This document shows positions 2,948-39,325 of a DNA stretch of 39,401 nt, piece by piece. Positions within the stretch are counted from its first letter, which is position 1, and every line of letters begins with the position of its first letter. The DNA is from a virus. A program made the position numbers and the translations under genes. Where the stretch lies: the UHGV virus genome UHGV-0067872; one strand, 5' to 3'. The notes beneath the pieces are model-generated. The model saw only the letters and a program-made list of their open reading frames with translations, was not told the DNA's origin and did not search any database.

Positions 2948-2963
2948 TGTTAATTACTCCATG

Positions 2964-3278
2964 TTAATTTATTCGTATGCCTGCTCTTTCTTCATCGAGT
3001 TTTTTTAGCTTGTATCGCATAGCTCTTACTGAATAAATTGAGCGGCAGGTTGCAATTGCTATTTCTTCTGCGGAGAACTTACCGAAAAGTGATACTTCGG
3101 CTCTTGTCCATCGTCTTCCACGAAGTCGGCTAACAATGTCAGCGCCAATCCTTGTTGCTTTCGCCATTACTGCTTTTTCAGTCCTTTCCAGTTTTTCTGC
3201 GATAACTTCAACTGGCATTGTCGCCGCTACCTCGCGCAAGAAATCTACTTCCCATTTCTCCCATGGAGTCTTTTTCAT
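2964..3278 (-). CDS. Hypothetical protein with two internal Myb/SANT-like repeats (putative DNA-binding)
   Basis: Two internal repeats of the form W..EV.(F/L)....E.IA....R...V (residues ~6-45 and ~57-95). Confidence 0.45.
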   Translation of the reverse strand: MKKTPWEKWEVDFLREVAATMPVEVIAEKLERTEKAVMAKATRIGADIVSRLRGRRWTRAEVSLFGKFSAEEIAIATCRSIYSVRAMRYKLKKLDEERAGIRIN

Positions 3279-3289
3279 AGGCGATACCG

Positions 3290-3772
3290 TTATTTGATAA
3301 GAAGTGAAGGTTTCCCAACTTTGAGTTGAGCGCCGGGGATATTTATTCCTGCTTTTAGTTGGTGTTTGATTGCCAGTTTGTCGGCTTTAATTGTCGTTTC
3401 AAACTCAACGTATTCAGGAGGAAGGGCGCTTGAGTCGATGATTTCTACAGTTTCTGACGGTTTGCGGATTGTTACCTGGTGAATACCTGCTCTAATCTTT
3501 TTCTTGCCAACCATTTCAAGCGATGAGGCTATATATGCCATAATGCTGTCAATCTTATTTTGAATTACTGCGGCTCGCTCATTCAGTGACTTTGCCTCTT
3601 CCTTGAGGCGTTCAGCATAACCAGATTCATTTTTAATAATGGCAAGAAGTTGCTCTATTTTATCGGTAAATTCTCCTTCCATGCCTTCTATTGTGTCAGC
3701 AATCATCTCTGGTTCTAAATCTGAATCCATCAATTTTGCGTATTCATTGGCAATTTCATACAGTTTGCTCAC
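3290..3772 (-). CDS. Gp157-like coiled-coil protein adjacent to recT
   Basis: ORF track gives 3290..3805; I prefer the GTG at 3772 because GGAGG sits 6 nt upstream; family assignment from memory only. Confidence 0.4.
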   Translation of the reverse strand: MSKLYEIANEYAKLMDSDLEPEMIADTIEGMEGEFTDKIEQLLAIIKNESGYAERLKEEAKSLNERAAVIQNKIDSIMAYIASSLEMVGKKKIRAGIHQVTIRKPSETVEIIDSSALPPEYVEFETTIKADKLAIKHQLKAGINIPGAQLKVGKPSLLIK

Positions 3773-4667
3773 TGGCAACCTCCAGTTTCGCTTTGCATTC
3801 TGCATAAATGGCTTGTACGTTCTGCTGCAATTTCATCCCAGATGTCAGGCGATATGCTTCTGCAAAATATCGCTTCAAATCATCCATGTTTTCTGCCTGA
3901 GCCATTTCATCACAAAGAAGTTGTGCTTTTTCCATAATTTCCTGCTGGCGTTTCCGTTCATCTTCGCGGATATCTTCCTCTGATTTGTGCGGCATAACTG
4001 GTTCAGTCCACACACCTTCTTCTTCGTTTAGTACGTGAATAGCACTATCAAGACGTGATGCCTTAGGCCAATACTTGCTTGCACGCTTTACGACCGTCTT
4101 TCGCGCCATCTCATTCCAGTGATTTACCCATGGTCCTTTATCGCTGAATGCCGCCTTGCTTGTTTTCCTTACAGCCTCAATTTCAGCCAGACTCATCTCT
4201 TCCGTTAGATAATCACCTGCTGGCGTCTTAACTGTGCAGTAAACGCCAACGATATCACCACGATCACCGAAGGCGTTGTATTTATGGGTTGGTGCTTTAT
4301 CAAGCCCGTTTGACTCATAGGTATCGTTAGCATGAACAAGTTTTGCCTGACCCCATGAGATAACACCAGACTCCATTGCAATATGGAGCAATCCCATATA
4401 ACTGATATCAAGGCACACCATGCCGTCGCGCGGAACCAGATAAGCCAGTTTGCTAGCCGGGTTTAAGGTGATGCCGATCGCCGCAACATTGATGATGGCG
4501 TTCTGTGCGCTGGTTGGATTTGCCAGTGCCGTTTTAGCCAGGTAATCATTTTTCTGGAAATACTGAATTGCAAACTGGCTTTCCTTAGCCCATGTCACCG
4601 TCTGTTCAGTCAATGCTCCGCAGAATAACTGCTCCTGCTGTTTAACGAATTCAACGATATTGCTCAT
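3756..4667 (-). CDS. recT: RecT-family single-strand annealing recombinase
   Basis: 303-aa ORF with the RecT-like core as I recall it; position matches a lambdoid recombination module. Confidence 0.85.
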   Translation of the reverse strand: MSNIVEFVKQQEQLFCGALTEQTVTWAKESQFAIQYFQKNDYLAKTALANPTSAQNAIINVAAIGITLNPASKLAYLVPRDGMVCLDISYMGLLHIAMESGVISWGQAKLVHANDTYESNGLDKAPTHKYNAFGDRGDIVGVYCTVKTPAGDYLTEEMSLAEIEAVRKTSKAAFSDKGPWVNHWNEMARKTVVKRASKYWPKASRLDSAIHVLNEEEGVWTEPVMPHKSEEDIREDERKRQQEIMEKAQLLCDEMAQAENMDDLKRYFAEAYRLTSGMKLQQNVQAIYAECKAKLEVASEQTV

Positions 4668-4975
4668 GCTGCTTCTCCATAAATGTGTCTGCGTTTGAAT
4701 ATTGCGAAGGCATATTCAGCCTTAACTCTTTCGGTTATTGCATCCCAGAACCATTCAGCGGCTTTTTCCTGATAGTTACAGTCATCATCTTCCAGCCAGT
4801 CGATAGCGTCCTTAGTGTGTTCATCTGGTTTATATGAGCGAAGCATTTCGCTTATTGGGTCGCAACGTTTGCAGAGGCGATCAACTTCACTGTTGATTCG
4901 CTCGTAATCTTCATCAGTAAAACTTGCGATTATTTGCGATATTTCACGCTTATCATTCAGAGTCAGAATCATCAT
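4664..4975 (-). CDS. Hypothetical protein (103 aa) upstream of recT
   Basis: ORF coupled to recT (ATGA overlap); acidic; unknown. Confidence 0.5.
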   Translation of the reverse strand: MMILTLNDKREISQIIASFTDEDYERINSEVDRLCKRCDPISEMLRSYKPDEHTKDAIDWLEDDDCNYQEKAAEWFWDAITERVKAEYAFAIFKRRHIYGEAA

Positions 4976-5060
4976 CTTTCTCCTGTTCTTTGTGCTGATT
5001 GAGCATTTTGTTCATCTGACTAATGAATTCTTCGTCTGACCAGTTATCTGTAAAACTCAT
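4953..5060 (-). CDS. Small acidic ORF (35 aa) in the kil position
   Basis: Hand translation MSFTDNWSDEEFISQMNKMLNQHKEQEKDDDSDSE; ATG overlaps the cIII-like stop; too short for certainty. Confidence 0.2.
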   Translation of the reverse strand: MSFTDNWSDEEFISQMNKMLNQHKEQEKDDDSDSE

Positions 5061-5227
5061 GGACGGCCTTGTTGTTTCAAAATATCCCAAAGCTTTTCGA
5101 GCAAGCTTTTCATTCTTGGTTGTTTAAAGTCTGCTCCGGTTAAAATATTTTTTCGTGAATGCTGTACCGATAAAATCGGGTTGAAAGGGCGAACCGATGC
5201 CGCCCCTGCAATAGCGAACTGTTGCAT
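5057..5227 (-). CDS. cIII: cIII-like protease inhibitor (56 aa)
   Basis: Hand translation MQQFAIAGAASVRPFNPILSVQHSRKNILTGADFKQPRMKSLLEKLWDILKQQGRP; shares MQ.AIAG and SLLE...DIL.Q.G with lambda CIII as I recall it; correct map position. Confidence 0.4.
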   Translation of the reverse strand: MQQFAIAGAASVRPFNPILSVQHSRKNILTGADFKQPRMKSLLEKLWDILKQQGRP

Positions 5228-5317
5228 AGGATGCTCCTTCTGTTTGATTGCATAACGAAAACGCCTCGAGTGAAGCGTTATTGGTATGCGGTAAAGCCGC
5301 CAACAGGCGGCTATTTG

Positions 5318-5551
5318 CTATTGATTCTTTTCAAGAACATCAATGATGTCGTCCGGGTTGTCTCCGTTGTCTTCACAAAATGCTTCGAATTCAGCCCATT
5401 TCGCGCTGATAAAATCAATTACTCTCATTAATTCGTATTCCATATTTTTCTCCAGACCAAAAGAATGCCGCCCATATAGAGCGGCAAGACTATCAAGGAA
5501 TGATTTCCAATAATCAGAACAAGTCGGCTCCTGTTTAGTTACGAGCGACAT
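5318..5551 (-). CDS. Acidic hypothetical protein (77 aa)
   Basis: ORF between cIII-like and N; D/E-rich C-terminus; no recognised domain. Confidence 0.5.
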   Translation of the reverse strand: MSLVTKQEPTCSDYWKSFLDSLAALYGRHSFGLEKNMEYELMRVIDFISAKWAEFEAFCEDNGDNPDDIIDVLEKNQ

Positions 5552-5599
5552 TGCTCCGTGTATTCACTCGTTGGAATGAATACACAGTGCTTACTCGTA

Positions 5600-6070
5600 C
5601 TAATAAAATACCCAATTTTCTGTTTCTTGGTTGTGCCCAAAGTTATATTCAATATCTGGTGTTGATGTATCAATATTCTTCATCCCATCAACAAGAGTTG
5701 ATACAACAGCCAAATCTTGTTTGATTCTCATTAAATGGTATTTCTTCCGGCGCAATAAACTTTCAATGGCAAGTTTCTTCGTTGGGAATGCAAAAGATCT
5801 TTCTGCATTTTTTGCTACTTTCTTAATTGCATATCTATTTCTCCTTTGTTTCCATTCCTGTAACCACTGATTTGGTGCTGGTTTAAAATTAACAATCCAA
5901 TGCGCAGGAACCAACCATGCATAATGCTCTGTCTGATGAAAAGCTATATATTGAAGTGCGAATATTTTTATCCCATCTTCTTCAACTGTCGCCTGGAATC
6001 TCCAGAAAACAGGCATTCCATCATGTTCAGTTTCTGATTCAGGAAAAGGTACGCTCCATGATTTTGTCAT
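5600..6070 (-). CDS. Basic hypothetical protein (156 aa), AT-rich moron
   Basis: ORF directly downstream of N; markedly AT-rich DNA versus flanks; K/R-rich centre; no recognised domain. Confidence 0.5.
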   Translation of the reverse strand: MTKSWSVPFPESETEHDGMPVFWRFQATVEEDGIKIFALQYIAFHQTEHYAWLVPAHWIVNFKPAPNQWLQEWKQRRNRYAIKKVAKNAERSFAFPTKKLAIESLLRRKKYHLMRIKQDLAVVSTLVDGMKNIDTSTPDIEYNFGHNQETENWVFY

Positions 6071-6078
6071 ATCTCACC

Positions 6079-6378
6079 TCAAATAAGTGGTTTGCTGCCT
6101 AATTTCATTTTCTGGCGACCAACACAAGTCACACCCATTTCACTGCGCGGCTTGCGGTAGTAAATACGGTTCTGTTTACGCTCGACTTCTTCTGCCTTCT
6201 TGCAGCGAAGGCTTCCGAGTGATGCTGCTTTATCTGCTCTGACGCAACCAGAGAGCTTTAGCGCAATTTTTCGCGCCAGTCGCTGCTCTTGCATTGCCTG
6301 TTCACGTTGAGTCTGTCTGCGTGCTCTGCGGCGATTTCTGGCGTTATCGTCAGCCAGATATGTAATGACTACTGTCAT
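6079..6378 (-). CDS. N: N-type transcription antiterminator
   Basis: Arg-rich motif NARNRRRARRQTQREQ near N-terminus; C-terminus YYRKPRSEMGVTCVGRQKMKLGSKPLI parallels lambda N as I recall it. Confidence 0.75.
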   Translation of the reverse strand: MTVVITYLADDNARNRRRARRQTQREQAMQEQRLARKIALKLSGCVRADKAASLGSLRCKKAEEVERKQNRIYYRKPRSEMGVTCVGRQKMKLGSKPLI

Positions 6379-6571
6379 GTTGACCTCCGATGATTGACTT
6401 TGGTGATTGGATGGCCGGTGCTGAATTCCGGCTTACTGGTTAGAGCGCCCGCACTACCAGTGACGCTGTCTTGAGGCGCAGATTGGTTACTGCTTGCCAT
6501 GAGCGCTGTTTATACATTGGTCGAGCATCAGCCTGCTCATTCATCCAATCCCAAAGCCAACTACTCTTTGG

Positions 6572-6614
6572 TTCCCGCATTTCGGCGGGACAATCACATC
6601 AATGTTAAAGAGCC
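6572..6614 (-). promoter_or_regulatory. nutL (boxA-like GCTCTTTAA plus boxB hairpin)
   Basis: Minus strand reads TCCCGCCGAAATGCGGGAA; the same hairpin recurs on the plus strand at nutR. Confidence 0.5.
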
Positions 6615-6661
6615 TGCCAATCTGTTCCGTTTGGCTTCCAGCGTCCTGCTGATGGCTAAAG

Positions 6662-6746
6662 AATACTGTAGGTATTTTATTGTGTAAATACCCAAGGTAT
6701 TTGTTTTTGGTGAAATAATGATAAGCAAATGAATACAAAGGATATT
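6662..6746 (-). promoter_or_regulatory. OL operator cluster / PL region
   Basis: Palindromes AATAC-N5-GTATT at 6662-6676 and 6687-6701 and a weaker copy at 6732-6746; same consensus as the OR sites. Confidence 0.5.
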
Positions 6747-6832
6747 TATTTTTTCGCTGTCTGCTTGTTCAGTGATTTTTATGCGGGATATGTGAAGTGG
6801 ATCCCGATAGCTATTGCTGCCGGGATTATGGG

Positions 6833-7201
6833 TTAGTCAGCGAAGGTTAAGACGAGAATTACCTTAATGATGTCTGCTACAACAGACACGGCCATAGATA
6901 AACCAAAGACGATCCAAGCCACAGTGATGTCTTCACTACCATCGTATAGAGTTCCGTAATCACTGGTGTAAGGCGTAAATGTCGCGCCTTGATACAATAG
7001 GTATAAGCTTGATCCATAGAGGATAAATGCAGATATCCCTTGTATTGCTATGATCACAAGAATCATGAAACGAGCTGATCTATGCGCCCAAGCCTGGCTT
7101 ATTTTTTCTGATAGAGATTTCGCAATAAAAGCATGCGCTAAGCCGTAAATTGTCGAGATTGCCAACATCCCAAAAAAGCTTGCTATAGCGGTTCCAACCA
7201 T
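6833..7201 (-). CDS. Small polytopic membrane protein co-transcribed with cI
   Basis: ORF track 6833..7222 (TTG start overlapping cI stop); I prefer ATG at 7201 with AAGGGG SD; three predicted hydrophobic helices. Confidence 0.55.
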   Translation of the reverse strand: MVGTAIASFFGMLAISTIYGLAHAFIAKSLSEKISQAWAHRSARFMILVIIAIQGISAFILYGSSLYLLYQGATFTPYTSDYGTLYDGSEDITVAWIVFGLSMAVSVVADIIKVILVLTFAD

Positions 7202-7218
7202 AATCGCCCCTTGCGTGA

Positions 7219-7935
7219 TCAAACCAGCCTTAGTTTTGTCTCAATTGCAACGCCTATAATCTTGCAGTTTCCATTGATTGGCACGAGAGGCCATGCAGGA
7301 TTAAGTCCCTTGAGGTATTTATTTCCGCCGTCGATTATCAGCTTCTTGAATGTTGCTTCGTTAGAGTCAGAAAGTTTTGCTATGACCAAGCTGCCGTTGA
7401 TCGCCTCCCTTCCGGTATCGAAAAGAACGAATGTTCCCTCTGGAATGCTTAACCCAACCGGTGCCGTCATTGAATCACCTTCCACTTTAAGCCAAAACGC
7501 ATTACCTTGAATATGCGCGTCAGACTCAAGCCAAACATCTATGTCTTTAATGGTGTATGGTTCGCATGCTTCACACCACGAGCCAGCCTGGATACTGCTT
7601 AACACCGGATACCTCTTTCCTGCTCTGTATTCCCCTGCATACCTTACGTTGGCATCGCTCTTAAGGCTTTCTGCCTGTTCTGCAACCTTGGCAGCAATTG
7701 ACTGGCTAAAATCAGCAATTGAGACTTGCAACAATCGTGCAAAACCAGATGCAACCTCAACGTTTAGCGCGTTTCTGCCATTAAGATAATGCCCTACCGC
7801 TCCTTGGGTGATACCCAGTTCATCAGCGATTGAGTATTGGGTTATTCCCAATTCTTTCTTTTTTGACTCATACAAAGCCTTAAGCCGCTTAGCGTCTTCG
7901 AGCTGTTCTGTCGTCAGTGATTTTTTATTTTCCAT
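7219..7935 (-). CDS. cI: cI-type repressor (HTH + S24 LexA-like autopeptidase domain)
   Basis: N-terminus LTTEQLEDAKRLKALYESKKKELG resembles lambda cI; C-terminal domain with AGSWCEACEP and VEGDSM motifs of S24 peptidases; divergent from cro. Confidence 0.9.
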   Translation of the reverse strand: MENKKSLTTEQLEDAKRLKALYESKKKELGITQYSIADELGITQGAVGHYLNGRNALNVEVASGFARLLQVSIADFSQSIAAKVAEQAESLKSDANVRYAGEYRAGKRYPVLSSIQAGSWCEACEPYTIKDIDVWLESDAHIQGNAFWLKVEGDSMTAPVGLSIPEGTFVLFDTGREAINGSLVIAKLSDSNEATFKKLIIDGGNKYLKGLNPAWPLVPINGNCKIIGVAIETKLRLV

Positions 7936-7946
7936 AGCCTAATTCT

Positions 7947-8010
7947 AATAGCTAAGGTACTTAAACTAAAAATACCCTGAGTATTGATTGCTTTGAATAC
8001 CTGTAGTATT
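7947..8010. promoter_or_regulatory. OR operator cluster (three sites) with PRM/PR
   Basis: AATAC-N5-GTATT palindromes at 7971-7985 and 7996-8010 plus a degenerate copy at 7947-7961, about 25 bp apart. Confidence 0.55.
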
Positions 8011-8041
8011 CTTTGTTCATGGTTAATAACGGAGAGTGCAT

Positions 8042-8236
8042 ATGATTCGAATGACACTTGCCGATTACGCCAAAATCCATGGACAGGCTAAAGCAGCCAG
8101 TGACTTTGGTGTAATCCAGTGCGCTATCAGCAAGGCCATTCTGGCAGGCCGTAACATCATGGTTACGGTAAAGCCTGATGGCAGTGTGATTGGAGAGGAA
8201 GTTCGTCCTTTCCCAAGCAACAAGAAAAACAAATAG
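8042..8236 (+). CDS. cro: Cro-like repressor
   Basis: Track begins at GTG 8036; ATG 8042 has GGAG upstream; sequence parallels lambda Cro (DYA..GQ.K.A.D.GV.Q.AI.KAI.AGR...PFPSNKK). Confidence 0.7.
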
Positions 8237-8242
8237 TAACAC

Positions 8243-8287
8243 CGCTCTTTAACAGTCATGGTCATCATTCCCGCCGAAATGCGGGAA
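8243..8287 (+). promoter_or_regulatory. nutR (boxA CGCTCTTTA plus boxB hairpin TTCCCGC-CGAAAT-GCGGGAA)
   Basis: Read directly between cro and cII; hairpin identical to nutL. Confidence 0.55.
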
Positions 8288-8344
8288 TACAACGCGCATA
8301 AGTTGATGCGCATAACTTCTTATTTGTTAAGGAAATACTTACAT

Positions 8345-33218: not shown

Positions 33219-33860
33219 TCAAAGCAACGGGATTTCAAGGTAAACTGCGGTTGCCAAAATACTAACATCTTCATTTCTAACAAGAATATTAGGATACATT
33301 GGGTTTAGGGATACTAGGTTTGTCTCTATTTCACCAATGTAAACCTGTTTGAAGCTCAATATTTGCTCTTTATCCAATGATGCTATTACATAATCTTTGC
33401 TTTTAGCTTTTACTAGAGGGCTGAACGTGACAACCGATCCTCTGGGAAAGCTAATACCTGAACTTGTAGTCATAGCTTCACCTTCAATAGTCAATGCAAA
33501 TGCAGAGTCACCAACATTGTATATTGCCGGATGAAATCTAGACGATGAATGTTCACCTGTGTTTAGATAATGCATAACTTCATCTAGTTTGAGGATTGGT
33601 ATTTGCTTTACCAGAACGTCAGGCATGACGTTTTTTGTTCCCGGACCCTGACCTTCACCTAGAGCTAACCACTCAGCTGTAGTACCTAATGCGTTGGCTA
33701 ATGCCTGCAATACCCGAAGCCGTGGTTTAGCCTCACCACCCTCGTATGCAGCTATTTGACGTTGAACAACACCAGCTAATTTTGACAACTGCGCCTGCGT
33801 CATACCCCTGGACTGTCTTGCCAGAGATACTCTTGATGGGAATTGATCGTCAAAATTCAT
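33219..33860 (-). CDS. Second cI/LexA-type repressor (HTH_XRE + S24 peptidase domain)
   Basis: HTH segment MTQAQLSKLAGVVQRQIAAYEGG; C-terminal S24-like domain (TIEGEAMT...); divergent from Arc-like gene. Confidence 0.8.
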   Translation of the reverse strand: MNFDDQFPSRVSLARQSRGMTQAQLSKLAGVVQRQIAAYEGGEAKPRLRVLQALANALGTTAEWLALGEGQGPGTKNVMPDVLVKQIPILKLDEVMHYLNTGEHSSSRFHPAIYNVGDSAFALTIEGEAMTTSSGISFPRGSVVTFSPLVKAKSKDYVIASLDKEQILSFKQVYIGEIETNLVSLNPMYPNILVRNEDVSILATAVYLEIPLL

Positions 33861-33959: not shown

Positions 33960-34133
33960 ATGACTGAAAAGATATCTTCCATCAAGCCGCGTCAGGTTCG
34001 TTTTACAGAAAAGGTTGATTCACATATCCGCGAATCAGCAAAAAGATGCCATAGGTCAATTCAGGCAGAGATAGCTTATCGAATGGAGTTATTGATGAAA
34101 CTTGAGGCAAAGGGCGATGTTGTCATCCAATAA
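33960..34133 (+). CDS. Arc/CopG-like ribbon-helix-helix repressor (57 aa), absent from the ORF track
   Basis: Hand translation MTEKISSIKPRQVRFTEKVDSHIRESAKRCHRSIQAEIAYRMELLMKLEAKGDVVIQ; AGGAG SD; beta-strand then two helices. Confidence 0.5.
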   Translation: MTEKISSIKPRQVRFTEKVDSHIRESAKRCHRSIQAEIAYRMELLMKLEAKGDVVIQ

Positions 34134-34206
34134 AAATAGTGAAGCCCGGCAGTGCGCGAACACAAACCGGGCCTCTATGTCAGTAACCGTATACAAGGAA
34201 ACTAAC

Positions 34207-34845
34207 ATGAACATTGTAGCAAAATCAGATTATAACTTCCAAGGATTCACTTTTAACCCTGTAACAGAGGGTGGGTCTATCTGGTTTACCTCCACCGAAC
34301 TAGCTAAGGCTCTCGGCTATAAAAAAACTGATGCCATCAGCCAAATTTATGCCCGTAATGCTGACGAGTTTTCCGACTCAATGTCATTGACCCTCAATAT
34401 GAAGGTCAACGGGATAAACAATAGCTTACGTAACAAATCGGTCAGAGTTTACTCGCTCCGAGGCGCTCACTTGGTGGCGATGTTTGCTTCTACGCCCAAG
34501 GCCAAAGAGTTCCGCCGCTGGGTGCTGGATATTTTGGATCGGCAGGCAGAATGCTCACCGATTGCAAAACAGTTTACTGATGAAGAACTGGTTAATCTCT
34601 GCTACTTACAATTGTGGATGGAGAAGAGTCAACAAATGTGCAAACACATCTACCCAGGAATGAAGCAAATTGGTTCTGAGCTTTCAGGAAGAATTTACGA
34701 TATTGCATATGAGACTCGCTATATGTCAGAAGAAACCAAGAAATCACTTCTTCGTGAAATGAAGAATCTTGATACCAACAATTTTGTCGTAAAGAACGCT
34801 CAGCCAATGCTGACAAAACTGCGCGGCGAGGAATGGATTCATTGA
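34207..34845 (+). CDS. Antirepressor with Bro-N domain
   Basis: FQGFTFNPVTEGGSIWFTSTELAKALGY...VYSLRGAHLVAMFASTPKAKEFRRWVLDIL is a Bro-N signature; ATG 34207 with AAGGA SD. Confidence 0.7.
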   Translation: MNIVAKSDYNFQGFTFNPVTEGGSIWFTSTELAKALGYKKTDAISQIYARNADEFSDSMSLTLNMKVNGINNSLRNKSVRVYSLRGAHLVAMFASTPKAKEFRRWVLDILDRQAECSPIAKQFTDEELVNLCYLQLWMEKSQQMCKHIYPGMKQIGSELSGRIYDIAYETRYMSEETKKSLLREMKNLDTNNFVVKNAQPMLTKLRGEEWIH

Positions 34846-34933
34846 TTGGTGCGCCGGACGGCGCAAAAAGAAAACCGCCAGTGTGCTGCTGGCGGCCTAT
34901 GTCACACCCTTACAACCACATAAGGAATGCCTA

Positions 34934-35659
34934 ATGACTTTGAAGAATGTAGCAAACATCGGATCCGTTGTCACGGATAAAACCATTGACAGCCAAAGTC
35001 TTCTGATGATGGTTAATGAAGCTCGCAAGTTATGTGGAGAGCCATCAGTACGTAACAACAAATTCATCGAGAAAATTGAGGATGAATTGGAGGGCGAGAC
35101 CTACACAAAAAGTGTAGGTCGGAAAAACGGGGCTGACATTGATGTTATCTCCATGACTATCAAGCAGGCGCTTCGTGTTGCTGCTCGCGAATCTAAAGCA
35201 GTTCGCCGAACACTTGTAGACAAACTTGAAAGTATGCAGGAAGCACACATTAAAAGCGGTAAATCAGCGAGTGGACTTGTTGAGTATCGTCAAGCGCGAA
35301 CATTGAAAATGACGGTTGAAGCTGTTACCAATCTGTTCGATCTGATGCCAAATCTTGCGCCTGAGGCAAAGCAGACAGCGGCAGCAAGTATAATCAACCC
35401 GCTCGTTGGTTTTAATGCAATACCTCTTCCGGCAATAGAAGAGCATTACTACTCAGCAGGGGAGGTTGCAGAGCAGCTTGGAGTAACGGCCAACAAGATT
35501 GGTCGCATTGCTAACGCAAACAACCTCAAAACTGAGCAGTACGGGAAGTTCTTCCTGGATAAATCTGCACATTCCAGCAAACAGGTGGAAGCATTCCGCT
35601 ACAATGCGGAAGGTGTTAAAGCACTACAACACCTGATTCATGGGAGTAATGTTGCATAA
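34934..35659 (+). CDS. Rha-like regulator / second antirepressor-like protein
   Basis: ATG 34934 with AAGGA SD; C-terminal HTH-like AGEVAEQLGVTANKIGRIA; family assignment tentative. Confidence 0.45.
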   Translation: MTLKNVANIGSVVTDKTIDSQSLLMMVNEARKLCGEPSVRNNKFIEKIEDELEGETYTKSVGRKNGADIDVISMTIKQALRVAARESKAVRRTLVDKLESMQEAHIKSGKSASGLVEYRQARTLKMTVEAVTNLFDLMPNLAPEAKQTAAASIINPLVGFNAIPLPAIEEHYYSAGEVAEQLGVTANKIGRIANANNLKTEQYGKFFLDKSAHSSKQVEAFRYNAEGVKALQHLIHGSNVA

Positions 35660-35880
35660 TGGCAAAGAAAAAATATGGCATTATGCCGCCAAGAATCAAA
35701 GGAAGAGCCAGGGTAAAAGGCGATGCTGGAAGGTATCACATTCTTGGAGTTCTGTGGCATGAGAGAGCTTTAATTTTAAGCAGACCTCATGGGTATATTG
35801 AAAAGGTATCTATAGATAGAATTGAGATTCTTCCCCTTACTCCTGAAGAAGAAGAAACGTACGGACTTTTTGATAACTAG
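35659..35880 (+). CDS. Hypothetical protein (73 aa)
   Basis: Start overlaps upstream stop (TAATG); followed by strong terminator. Confidence 0.4.
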   Translation: MAKKKYGIMPPRIKGRARVKGDAGRYHILGVLWHERALILSRPHGYIEKVSIDRIEILPLTPEEEETYGLFDN

Positions 35881-35891
35881 CCAATTCACTA

Positions 35892-35916
35892 AACCCAGCT
35901 TCTGCTGGGTTTTTTA
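35892..35916 (+). terminator. Rho-independent terminator
   Basis: ACCCAGC-TTCT-GCTGGGT followed by T6. Confidence 0.65.
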
Positions 35917-35973
35917 TGCCCAAAATTCACCGTGGCAATGCTGCGGCGATTCCTTGTATCTGGAGTAAATTAA

Positions 35974-38025
35974 ATGACAGATTCAATAAATGCCAATGTT
36001 GTTGTTTCACAACCAAGTCAGTTATTCACTTTAGCTCGCTCGTTTAAAGCAAATGCTAATGGCAAAATTTATATCGGTAAAATTGATACTGACCCGGTAA
36101 ATCCTGAAAACCAGATTCCGGTTTATGTAGAGAACGAAGACGGTTCTCACGTTCCTGTTTCGCAACCAATCATCATTAACGCTGCTGGTTACCCGGTATA
36201 TAACGGACAGATTGCCAAGTTCGTTACTGTACAGGGCCATTCTATGGCTGTTTATGATGCGTATGGGGCACAGCAGTTTTATTTTCCAAATGTGCTGAAG
36301 TATGATCCGGATCAGCTAAGACATGAGCTAGCGTCGGAAGCGGGAACAACTTTAATAGGGAAGGGTGATCGAACTCTTGAAGAGTACTTAGAATCAAGCA
36401 AGGAAGATTTTGATAACTCATGGAAGAGATATGTAGGTAAATCTACAACGACACAAAAAGATAGCGCATACTCTGGAGCGGCTCACTACCAACCAGTTAG
36501 CGATGATGGGAGCACAATTGGTAATTATACATTTGAATCACCGGTGATTGTTGACTTCTCATCTACATCAGATTGTGTTATGCCAGATTCTGGTGTCGTT
36601 TTCAAAATGGGAGCTAATGGACTTACAAGTGGTAATTATTTTTCTCAAGATAATTACCACTTAAAAAATGTAACGGCAATTGGCGGTACCCCTGAAATTG
36701 TTACATTTGAACCATACACAGGATTGACAGCACTAGTAGATGGTGTTCGTATTATAAATAATGGCTCTCCAGACAAGACCGCTATTAATTTTAAAGGACA
36801 GAACTGGTGGCCTACAGTATCTAATAATATATTTAAAGATTATACAGATAAAAGAGGAAATTTTTGCAAGGCAATAGATGACGGAGGAGATTCATCTATA
36901 AGAAGGAGTGGGAATAGTAGATTGCTTTTCACTGGAAATAAAGTCTACTTTGGTGGGGATGCTCTTGGTGGTACGATGTTGAAAGCCAGCGCTGTCTTTA
37001 ATATTATAAAAGATAATGCCTGTGAACACGGAGAGAACGCGATTGTGTTTGAGTACCCATCATCATTCTCAGTTATCGACGGACTTTACACAGAATGTTC
37101 TTTTGGTGGTGGTAATCAGATAGTAATTGGTGACAAAGAACCTGATCCTAATATTGCAACAATGAATATGATTGGAATAACTATTAAGAATGTTTATTTC
37201 AATAATCATTCACATTCATCAAATAGGCTAATCAAATCTGGAAATGAAACCGTAAGAATAGACAGGTTAATTGTTGATAATATAATTGTCACAAATGCAA
37301 ATGTTGCATCGCCAGTTATTGAGTTGAATGATGTTCCTGGGCAATCGATTTGTGTCGGAAATGTATACTCTGGAGTTTCACTAATAAATAAAACAAGCAA
37401 TGCTGTAAAAATAATAGATATGAATAATAATTTTATTAAATCGCTAAATGGTAATTTAGCGTCTTCGGGGGGGGACTCCGCAACAGTAAATAATTCTAGA
37501 GAAAAAGTATTTGGTAACTTTTTTATTCAATCAACAGGAAGTTTGTCAGTTAGCAGATATGCAAGTGGTAATCAGTATCAAAAAAATAGAGAGTCAAAGA
37601 ACTACGCGGCTATAACCATAGCTCCTAATACTTCGTGCGGTTTTGAGTGGCAGAACCCAAGATATTCAGACCTATCTGGATCTACAGCAACAGTTCAGTT
37701 TCTAGCCAAAGCAAGCACTACAGTGAGTGCAGTAGTTTTAGTTAAATACAAGAACAGTTCTGGAGGTGACACGCTTGCAGCATCATCAATTAGTATTAAT
37801 GGTGGTGATTTTCAGGAGTTTACTATTCCATTCTTTGCTAACCGCAATGATGATGATGATTCTGTTCTCTCTGTTGATATTAGATTTGAAAATACATTAT
37901 CAAGCATTGTTTTTTATATTTGTGCTTTTAGATTAAACAGGGGGGATACAGGACTATGCCGGTCTGCTAATGATTATACGACAGGAGAGATTGATGCAGA
38001 GATATCAAAATTCACATTTTATTAA
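35974..38025 (+). CDS. Tailspike protein with P22-type N-terminal head-binding domain
   Basis: N-terminal ~115 aa closely parallels the P22 tailspike head-binding domain; the remainder is unrelated and AT-rich. Confidence 0.9.
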
Positions 38026-38122: not shown

Positions 38123-39280
38123 TCACTCCACCTTTTCATCAAGCCAGTCCGCCCACCACTGCATCATTTCTCTGCGCTTATCGAGATACTGCGCATGGTT
38201 GTAAATACCGCGCACAGATCCGCCGTTGGCATGTGCCAGTTGCATTTCAATAGCATCAGCAGGCCATTCGTTCTCGTTCATAATCGTGCTGAATTCATGC
38301 CTGAATCCGTGACCGCTTTCCAGACCCTCATAGCCGATTTGTTTGATCACAAGCAATACCGCGTTCTCGCAGATTGGCTTCTTCTTATCGTTGCGCCCGG
38401 CAAAAACAAACTCTGATACTGGTTTGGTGATTGAGCTTAGCGTAGTGAGAAGCTCAACCACCTGGTCTGACATAGGAACAACATGAATCTTGCGGCCCTT
38501 CATCACACTGGCGTCGATGGTGATAATCCTGTTATCAAAATCGACGTTCTTCCATAGCATGGAACGAAGCTCTTTTGTTCTTAGGGCTGTGTAGCGTAAA
38601 ACTTTGGTCGCAATGAGCGATACGATACTTCCTGAAAATGTTGCCAGTGCTTTGTTGAATGCCGGGATCTGGTCTGCAGGAAGAAACGGGAAGTTCTTCT
38701 TGCGGTACCCCTTCATGGCGTCAGCAAGGTCAGGTGCCGGGTTATATTTAGCCCTGCCGGTGACAATAGCGTAACGGAAAACCTCGCCGCATCTTCTGCG
38801 GGCTTTATTTGCTCGCTCCATTGCACCGCGATCTTCAAATCTGCGGATTACTTCCAGCAGTTGCATCGGCTCAATCTCCTGAATTTCAAGGCCGCCGATG
38901 ATAGGTAAAATGTCGTCATCAAACATTTTTGCAAGTTCAGTCGCATACCCTACTGACCATACTTGCTTCTTGTGCTCGTACCATTCCTTGTAAATCGCAC
39001 TAAAGGAATTGTTGTTAGACGAAGCCTTTTTCGCCTTTACCGGATCGATGCCAACCGAGATGTCTTTCCTCGCAGTCCATGCCTTATCCCTTGCCTCCTG
39101 CAAAGTCATTAGCGGATATTTTCCTACGGTCAGGATTTTCTCCTTACCGTCAATCTTGTAGCGAAGCTGCCATACCTTTTTCCCGGATACAGGGACATAA
39201 AGGTACAGGCCATTACCATCGAGAAGGCGGTATGGTTTTTCTTTCGGCTTTGCTGCTTCAATCTGCTTAACAGTGAGCAT
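38123..39280 (-). CDS. int: Tyrosine integrase
   Basis: Track ORF 38123..39316 (GTG); I prefer ATG 39280 giving MLTVKQIEAAKPKEKPYRLLDGNGLYLYV; C-terminal HGFRHEF...IYNHAQY catalytic region. Confidence 0.9.
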   Translation of the reverse strand: MLTVKQIEAAKPKEKPYRLLDGNGLYLYVPVSGKKVWQLRYKIDGKEKILTVGKYPLMTLQEARDKAWTARKDISVGIDPVKAKKASSNNNSFSAIYKEWYEHKKQVWSVGYATELAKMFDDDILPIIGGLEIQEIEPMQLLEVIRRFEDRGAMERANKARRRCGEVFRYAIVTGRAKYNPAPDLADAMKGYRKKNFPFLPADQIPAFNKALATFSGSIVSLIATKVLRYTALRTKELRSMLWKNVDFDNRIITIDASVMKGRKIHVVPMSDQVVELLTTLSSITKPVSEFVFAGRNDKKKPICENAVLLVIKQIGYEGLESGHGFRHEFSTIMNENEWPADAIEMQLAHANGGSVRGIYNHAQYLDKRREMMQWWADWLDEKVE

Positions 39281-39325
39281 GGGTAAAAATCCGGTGGGTA
39301 AAATTATTTTATCCACTTTTTACCC
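39281..39325. repeat. Three TTTTACCC octamers (two on minus, one on plus) just upstream of int
   Basis: GGGTAAAA at 39281-39288 and 39296-39303; TTTTACCC at 39318-39325; same octamer as the tandem repeat at 114-137. Confidence 0.55.

Follow-up and report, generated by a model that had tools for sequence, protein, structure and literature searches.

The tailspike gene and its surroundings

The DNA analysed here is a stretch of 39,401 nucleotides (virus genome UHGV-0067872), which is called the window below. An intact open reading frame is located at 35974..38025 on the plus strand. It starts with ATG and encodes a tailspike protein of 683 residues, the body of which is rich in Ser and Asn. The features of the locus are as follows.

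35891..35917, plus strand: terminator-like hairpin (CCCAGC-ttct-GCTGGG, then a T run), 5' of the tailspike gene, read from the sequence
35961..35964, plus strand: Shine-Dalgarno-like GGAG, 9 nt 5' of the ATG, read from the sequence
35974..36315, plus strand: head-binding domain, residues 1–114, ending in the YDPDQ motif (PF09008 and PDB N-domain matches)
36316..36525, plus strand: neck or linker, residues 115–184, with the motif LRxxLAxxxGAxLIG and two predicted helices
36526..37575, plus strand: right-handed parallel beta-helix predicted by AlphaFold2, residues ~185–534, the receptor-binding and presumed catalytic module
37093..37095, plus strand: codon of Glu374, located from the alignments of homologues
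37576..38022, plus strand: C-terminal beta-sandwich of CenC/CBM4/CBM11/CBM22-like fold, residues 535–683 (AlphaFold2 strands at model residues 438–551)
38023..38025, plus strand: stop codon TAA of the tailspike gene
38123..39316, minus strand: convergent tyrosine integrase of the IntS type (Pfam Phage_integrase and Arm-DNA-binding domain)

The window belongs to a temperate P22-like (Lederbergvirus) phage or prophage of Escherichia coli. A virion set of the P22 type was detected with Pfam: P22_portal, P22_CoatProtein, Phage_stabilise (gp10) and Phage_tail_NK, the Sf6-type tail-needle knob. The closest sequenced genome is phage Kapi1; over 57% of the window's initial 25 kb, the identity to it is 97%. 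The genome is otherwise mosaic with HK620, CUS-3 and others. The tailspike gene lies at the late region's end, and the gene order matches those of Kapi1 and HK620. An identical stretch of 9.4 kb is present on a human-associated metagenome scaffold.

An immI-like region precedes the tailspike gene. Besides the CI-like S24 repressor of immC (7219-7935, minus strand), a second repressor with HTH_3 and Peptidase_S24 (LexA/CI-type) domains is encoded in this region at 33219-33860 on the minus strand. An Arc-like gene and a pair of antirepressor genes (33960-34133, 34102-34845 and 34883-35659, all on the plus strand) are oriented divergently to it. Arc/Mnt-type regulators are found at the same position in the AHB3, Kapi1 and GCA_042737205 prophages. 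A self-cleaving repressor in the immI-like region could link the expression of the antirepressors to the SOS response. Kapi1 has a gene for an HNH endonuclease, in the opposite orientation, immediately 5' of its tailspike gene (Kapi1 record 2960-3460). At that place (35659-35880), the window has a 73-residue open reading frame of phrog_4977, which has no annotated function. The DNA that adjoins the tailspike gene upstream is variable in its own right.

The hairpin at 35891..35917 is the counterpart of the tANT terminator remnant annotated in HK620 (HK620 record 2421-2441), and the positions 35893-36315 of the window align with 2419-2842 of the HK620 record. A simple promoter/terminator scan did not report this hairpin. 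Within the tailspike gene, the sites from the scan were no commoner than in shuffled sequence, and no obvious internal signals were detected.

Head-binding domain

PF09008 (Head_binding) is the sole Pfam domain of the protein. It covers residues 4–114, corresponding to positions 3–113 of the 113-position profile, with E = 1.8e-64. In the PDB sequence search, the tailspikes of the Sf6, P22 and HK620 types match within residues 1–123 only. The identity of the head-binding domain is 75.5% to P22, 88.6% to Sf6 and 87.6% to HK620, and lies between 87 and 91% for HK620, CUS-3 and E212. In the initial annotation, the first ~115 residues were regarded as near-identical to the P22 tailspike. The homology is confirmed by the PF09008 match, but the near-identity was overstated, because the identity is only 75.5%.

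At the nucleotide level, the gene is similar to Kapi1 (93.5%) and HK620 (87%) as far as nt 342–345, right after the YDPDQ motif (codon 114), and no further. The similarity to other Lederbergvirus tailspikes ends at the same place, codon 114/115.

Relatives of the body and their anchors

The rest of the protein, called the body below, was initially described as unrelated to the P22 endorhamnosidase, and the searches agree with this description. No Pfam match was obtained for the body at E<=1. The P22 tailspike chains 8tvr, 2xc1 and 5gai match residues 2–118 only in the PDB sequence search; thus the full-length collinearity with the P22 tailspike that would speak against a chimera is absent. In the profile–profile alignment (hhalign) of the family profile with the HK620 tailspike, only the N-terminal anchor is aligned. 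The transfer of the HK620 catalytic residues D339/E372 by hhalign was also attempted, and was ruled out since the alignment is confined to the anchor. PDB searches with the single protein and with the family profile gave anchor matches only; a laminarinase CBM at E=0.037 is not significant.

The term "unrelated" holds against P22, but a recognisable relative does exist in a 75% identical Kuttervirus tailspike. Residues 115–683 are collinear with residues 484–1048 of Det7 gp206 (TSP4, 1048 residues, AJQ21020.1; Det7 record 4552-7698), with 75% protein identity by tblastn. The DNA identity is 80.6% from nt 610 of the gene to the stop codon. The match to phrog_36390 (E=9.5e-302) aligns residues 114–683 with the profile positions 483–1048. 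By segment, the identity to Det7 is 39% in the neck (residues 115–200), 81% in residues 201–534 and 81% in residues 535–683. The same TSP4 is also found in SenM-2, Phi_10 and RA148, which are close relatives of the Salmonella Kuttervirus Det7. Another profile, phrog_8280 ('colanic acid degradation'), was considered as a functional lead for the body and rejected. Its match is lost when residues 181–683 are scanned alone, and therefore stems from the N-terminal part, outside the body.

The body is found behind several kinds of anchor. In Det7 gp206, PF18668 (TSP1/Gp66 N-terminal) is located at residues 416–481, and the body homology starts at 484. Two metagenomic homologues are arranged in the same manner, with PF18668 at 181–240 and body homology from 243 (P0010), and with PF18668 at 57–128 and body homology from 131 (P0012). 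In the homologue P0013, a T7-type tail-fibre N-domain (PF03906) precedes the body, and in Citrobacter proteins of 777 residues the body is located behind an unrecognised anchor. The window protein has PF09008 instead, and PF18668 was not detected in it by Pfam. In each partner, the homology to the body sets in just behind the anchor domain. The body is therefore a horizontally mobile cassette, carried on at least four different virion anchors and always joined to them at a domain boundary.

The neck was compared separately over residues 115–200. It shows 84–100% identity in the closer homologues of the head-binding type (P0001-P0007), and 70% (P0011), 48% (P0014) and 34% (P0019) in more distant homologues of this type. 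The identity is 35–52% to Det7, the PF18668-anchored proteins and the other homologues lacking PF09008 (P0008-P0017), which are 50–78% identical overall. The divergence of the neck follows the anchor type.

The combination of PF09008 with this body, at 682–685 residues, is found in prophages of Citrobacter freundii (85%), Dickeya (71%) and Xenorhabdus (61%). The architecture of head-binding domain and body is therefore old and widespread. The cassette itself is rare: the body family comprises 25 representative clusters (50% identity) at E<=0.001 among 1.84 billion proteins.

Base and amino-acid composition

The GC content is 0.466 in the whole window, 0.409 in nt 1–345 of the gene and 0.364 in nt 346–2052. 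The latter is the lowest-GC stretch of 1.7 kb in the window, where 0.3% of such stretches are equally low. The GC content at third codon positions (GC3) is 0.24 in the body, as against 0.45–0.55 in the portal, coat, gp10 and integrase genes. The commonest residues of the body are Ser, Asn, Gly and Ile, with Ser at 11.3%, Asn at 9.3% and Ile at 7.6%. The early description of an AT-rich body, rich in Asn, Ser and Ile, is thus correct, and the uniform GC content that would weigh against a chimera is not seen in the gene (0.409 vs 0.364).

The best two-segment split of the GC content within the gene is located around nt 542 (codon 180), where it falls from 0.42 to 0.354 with a log-likelihood ratio of 3.8. 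The step within the gene is modest, and it sits at the start of the beta-helix, away from the domain junction at codon 115.

Predicted structure and candidate active site

Residues 106–683 were modelled as a monomer by AlphaFold2, using 24 homologues with the Det7 row left out (mean pLDDT 84.6, pTM 0.82). The two helices of the neck are located at residues 7–15 and 30–44 of the model, with low pLDDT. The following module is predicted to adopt the pectin-lyase-like right-handed beta-helix fold, and the model superposes on solved beta-helix enzymes. The structural matches of the body are hydrolases, lyases, epimerases and adhesins, with 7–15% identity. The beta-helix expected for residues 120–683 in the initial annotation is accordingly found in the model, whereas the glycosidase family, which was to be identified at the same time, is not assigned by any Pfam or PDB sequence match.

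For the C-terminal sandwich, the Foldseek search of the PDB gave CBM4, CBM11 and CBM22 structures with a probability of 1.0, E values of 1e-5 to 1e-4 and TM scores (target) of 0.5–0.69. The BFVD matches of the sandwich are annotated 'Carbohydrate-binding, CenC-like' and are located at the C-termini of tail fibres; Pfam gives no match. In the distant homologues (P0016-P0027), the CBM-like domain shows 23–40% identity and the beta-helix 41–62%. The C-terminal domain thus diverges much faster, and the two domains may evolve or be exchanged semi-independently.

The conservation across homologues down to 26% identity peaks at residues 270–390. In the QNWWP motif, Asn277, Trp279 and Pro280 are invariant, and Gln276 and Trp278 nearly so. 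The other conserved residues of this region are Lys299, Asp302, Asp303, Asn314-Ser315-Arg316, Glu351, Tyr372, Glu374 and Asp387; His412, just past residue 390, is conserved too. The body is matched by no sequence family in CAZy, Pfam or the PDB, and we therefore infer its mechanism and catalytic residues from conservation only. Glu374 is the only carboxylate of residues 270–390 that is invariant down to 26% identity; Asp226, located earlier in the helix, is invariant as well. Glu351 precedes Glu374 by 23 residues, about one coil, and Asp387 follows it. The spacing between Glu351 and Glu374 would resemble that of the catalytic carboxylates in beta-helix glycosidases. Glu374 is the best candidate for a catalytic residue, and a candidate active site would be composed of Glu374 with Glu351 and/or Asp387 and Asp302/Asp303. 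The corresponding groove is located within a subunit in P22 and HK620, and between subunits in Sf6.

Recombination at the domain junction

The tailspike gene was compared with that of E. coli AHB3, a human blood isolate, in which the orthologous prophage adjoins a tRNA-Arg gene and yfdC. The bodies of the two tailspikes are 97–99% identical, and the head-binding domains differ by 15% at the DNA level. Over the whole gene (AHB3 locus 6265-8313), 66 nucleotide differences were counted. Nucleotides 1–315 contain 48 of them, and the remaining 1737 nt contain 18 (~1%; Fisher p=2e-26). An almost identical body located behind head-binding domains with 15% divergence indicates recent recombination at the junction. 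Thus, the body has been exchanged recently between P22-like prophages of E. coli at the end of the head-binding domain. Relative to Kapi1, the entire body is replaced.

Eleven of the 18 differences are located in a 60-nt patch (nt 717–777), and seven are spread over the other ~1.65 kb. At residues 253–256 in this patch, the sequence is LVDG in the window, VIDN in AHB3 and VLDN in Det7. The patch, which belongs to an early beta-helix coil, resembles a micro-conversion tract.

A recent swap had been proposed initially. The comparison with AHB3 supports the recent exchange, but a single recent fusion does not account for the same architecture in Citrobacter, Dickeya and Xenorhabdus. Nor is the separation from the Det7 copy recent, with a DNA divergence of ~20%.

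Probable receptor and proposed catalytic activity

Among the complete E. coli genomes, the tailspike was found in AHB3 only; the two AHB3 records, of 4,946,734 bp each, are apparently the same genome. Among draft assemblies, proteins of the P0001 cluster are encoded in GCA_029719545.1, GCA_022975715.1, GCA_025261995.1, GCA_016859035.1 and the ROX36 assembly, and variants at 92–93% occur in others such as GCA_042737205.1. The O-antigen cluster of AHB3 is annotated with wzx and wzy of the O114 family, and the O114 wzy is present in 9 of 5426 complete E. coli genomes. The tailspike is absent from the other seven complete O114 genomes. The strains lysogenised by temperate P22-like phages are normally those with an O-antigen that serves the phage as its receptor, and the O114 O-antigen is therefore the best receptor candidate. 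It is probably the substrate and receptor of this tailspike, on an association that comes from one lysogen lineage.

A tailspike fragment (HDX9402887.1, locus tag ROX36_003024) and an O114 Wzy fragment (HDX9404637.1) have accession numbers 1750 apart, a hint that both come from one draft assembly and represent a possible second O114 lysogen. There is no overlap between the five Logan samples that contain O114 Wzy and the few tailspike samples listed, both lists being small subsets, and the O114 Wzy gene calls are heterogeneous. In AHB3, the gene of the O-antigen chain-length regulator, wzzB, is annotated as frameshifted (AHB3 chromosome locus 35555-36531); if the length of the O-antigen is altered, adsorption through the tailspike or superinfection could be affected.

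The O114 O-antigen is composed of Gal, Ribf, GlcNAc and Qui3N(N-acetyl-L-seryl), that is, 3,6-dideoxy-3-(N-acetyl-L-seryl)aminoglucose, and contains no uronic acid (PMC7685785, PMC2905691). Hydrolysis of this polymer is therefore likelier than lyase chemistry.

Our reading is that the gene encodes a receptor-binding and receptor-destroying tailspike of a Lederbergvirus, with a PF09008 anchor, a mobile body of beta-helix and CBM-like domain, and the O114 O-antigen as the most likely substrate. We assign it a probability of roughly 0.7. By analogy with P22, Sf6 and HK620, trimers would dock on the P22-type tail hub through residues 1–114, and the beta-helix would bind the O-antigen of the host and cleave it as an endoglycosidase. 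The cleavage would let the virion reach the outer membrane, where the tail needle would trigger DNA ejection. A possible role of the C-terminal sandwich is to stabilise the trimer or to provide a second sugar-binding site.

The body might instead depolymerise a capsule (K antigen), colanic acid or another exopolysaccharide, so that the O114 host would be coincidental. The best full-length Foldseek matches, Kp7 gp52, K2-2 TSP and Depo32, are depolymerases of Klebsiella capsules in which a C-terminal sandwich likewise follows the beta-helix, and the endosialidase tailspike of CUS-3 is a precedent in P22-like phages. The link to serogroup O114 also comes from one independent lineage. However, the matches to the capsule depolymerases have 10–12% identity and TM scores of 0.3–0.4, which are generic for beta-helices, and a single lysogen would be O114 by accident with a chance of ~0.2% (9/5426). 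TSP2 and TSP3, the Det7 tailspikes with known receptors, both target O-antigens (PMC11721090), and the phrog_8280 match stems from outside the body, as described above. A capsule or exopolysaccharide substrate is thus unlikely.

We consider it somewhat less likely still that the body is a non-catalytic adhesin spike, or that its chemistry is a different one, for instance that of a deacetylase or a lyase, and it is no glycoside hydrolase. The carboxylates Glu351, Glu374, Asp387 and Asp302/Asp303 are conserved on successive coils down to 26–35% identity, as in catalytic tailspikes, and an O-antigen without uronic acid offers no substrate for beta-elimination. The characterised tailspikes of P22-like phages (P22, Sf6, HK620 and CUS-3) are enzymes.

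That the protein is no chimera but a diverged orthologue of P22 gp9, collinear with the endorhamnosidase and AT-rich through its amino-acid composition, is already refuted by the limits of the P22 chains (residues 2–118) and of the HK620 profile comparison (the N-terminus), by the 75% identity to a myovirus tailspike from residue 115 on, by the breakpoint seen in the differences to AHB3, and by the GC3 of 0.24, a value roughly half as high as in adjacent genes and not explicable by amino-acid composition.

Comparison with known tailspikes

The modular construction of P22-like tailspikes, as in P22, Sf6, HK620 and CUS-3, is textbook knowledge. The tailspikes P22 gp9, Sf6 gp14, HK620 gp9 and that of CUS-3 have no detectable sequence similarity to the window protein in the body, and the structural alignment with HK620 gives 9% identity. 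The window body is much more AT-rich than these four tailspikes. In addition, the window protein ends in a CBM-like sandwich, whereas the P22 type has a C-terminal trimerisation domain and CUS-3 an endosialidase chaperone domain.

Det7 TSP4 resembles the window protein in its collinear body, with the beta-helix and the C-terminal domain each 81% identical. It differs in its N-terminal region of 483 residues with PF18668, as against the head-binding domain of 114 residues in the window protein. The N-termini of TSP4 proteins are described as XD domains of the baseplate hub (PMC8432352). The hallmark of Ackermannviridae TSP4, XD1/XD2(/XD3) followed by TD1 (PF18668), is not shared by the window protein, which lacks PF18668 and is homologous to Det7 from residue 484 only. 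The host genus also differs (Salmonella vs E. coli), and the specificity may differ at this level of identity.

The receptors reported for Det7 tailspikes are O:3,10 for TSP2 and O:4 for TSP3; for TSP4, none is reported in the same papers (PMC8432352, PMC11721090, PMC9965104). The gene cluster of Salmonella O28 (Pomona) is syntenic with that of O114, and the two antigens do not cross-react serologically (PMC2905691). It is conceivable, and put forward here only tentatively, that the body family is the first identified depolymerase specific for O114, an O-antigen with an unusual repeat, and, via the 81% identical counterpart, a pointer to the receptor of Det7-type TSP4, possibly of the Qui3N-containing Salmonella O28 (Pomona) type.

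A body exchange between Lederbergvirus and Kuttervirus was published for P22 gp9 and Det7 TSP3 (2008 work, as cited in PMC9965104). The case is alike in that phages of the two genera have a common receptor-binding body on unrelated anchors. It is unlike in that the body is the O:4 endorhamnosidase; the body treated here belongs to gp206, the adjacent gene in Det7. The Klebsiella proteins K2-2 TSP, Kp7 gp52 and Depo32 have the order of neck, beta-helix and C-terminal beta-sandwich that is predicted here, but they act on capsule substrates, have other anchors and show 10–12% identity.

Module swapping of this kind is well known, and the understanding of tailspike function and evolution is unchanged by the present case. 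Tailspike bodies set the host range of phages, and they also serve as depolymerases, as reagents for the detection of particular serogroups and as components of engineered phages. What is new, to a modest degree, is a rare body family in common with Det7 TSP4, the hypothesis of an O114 receptor, and a well-resolved junction of recent recombination. The gene provides a natural example of a recent exchange exactly at the boundary between head-binding domain and neck, and the common body cassette links a temperate podovirus of E. coli with a lytic myovirus of Salmonella.
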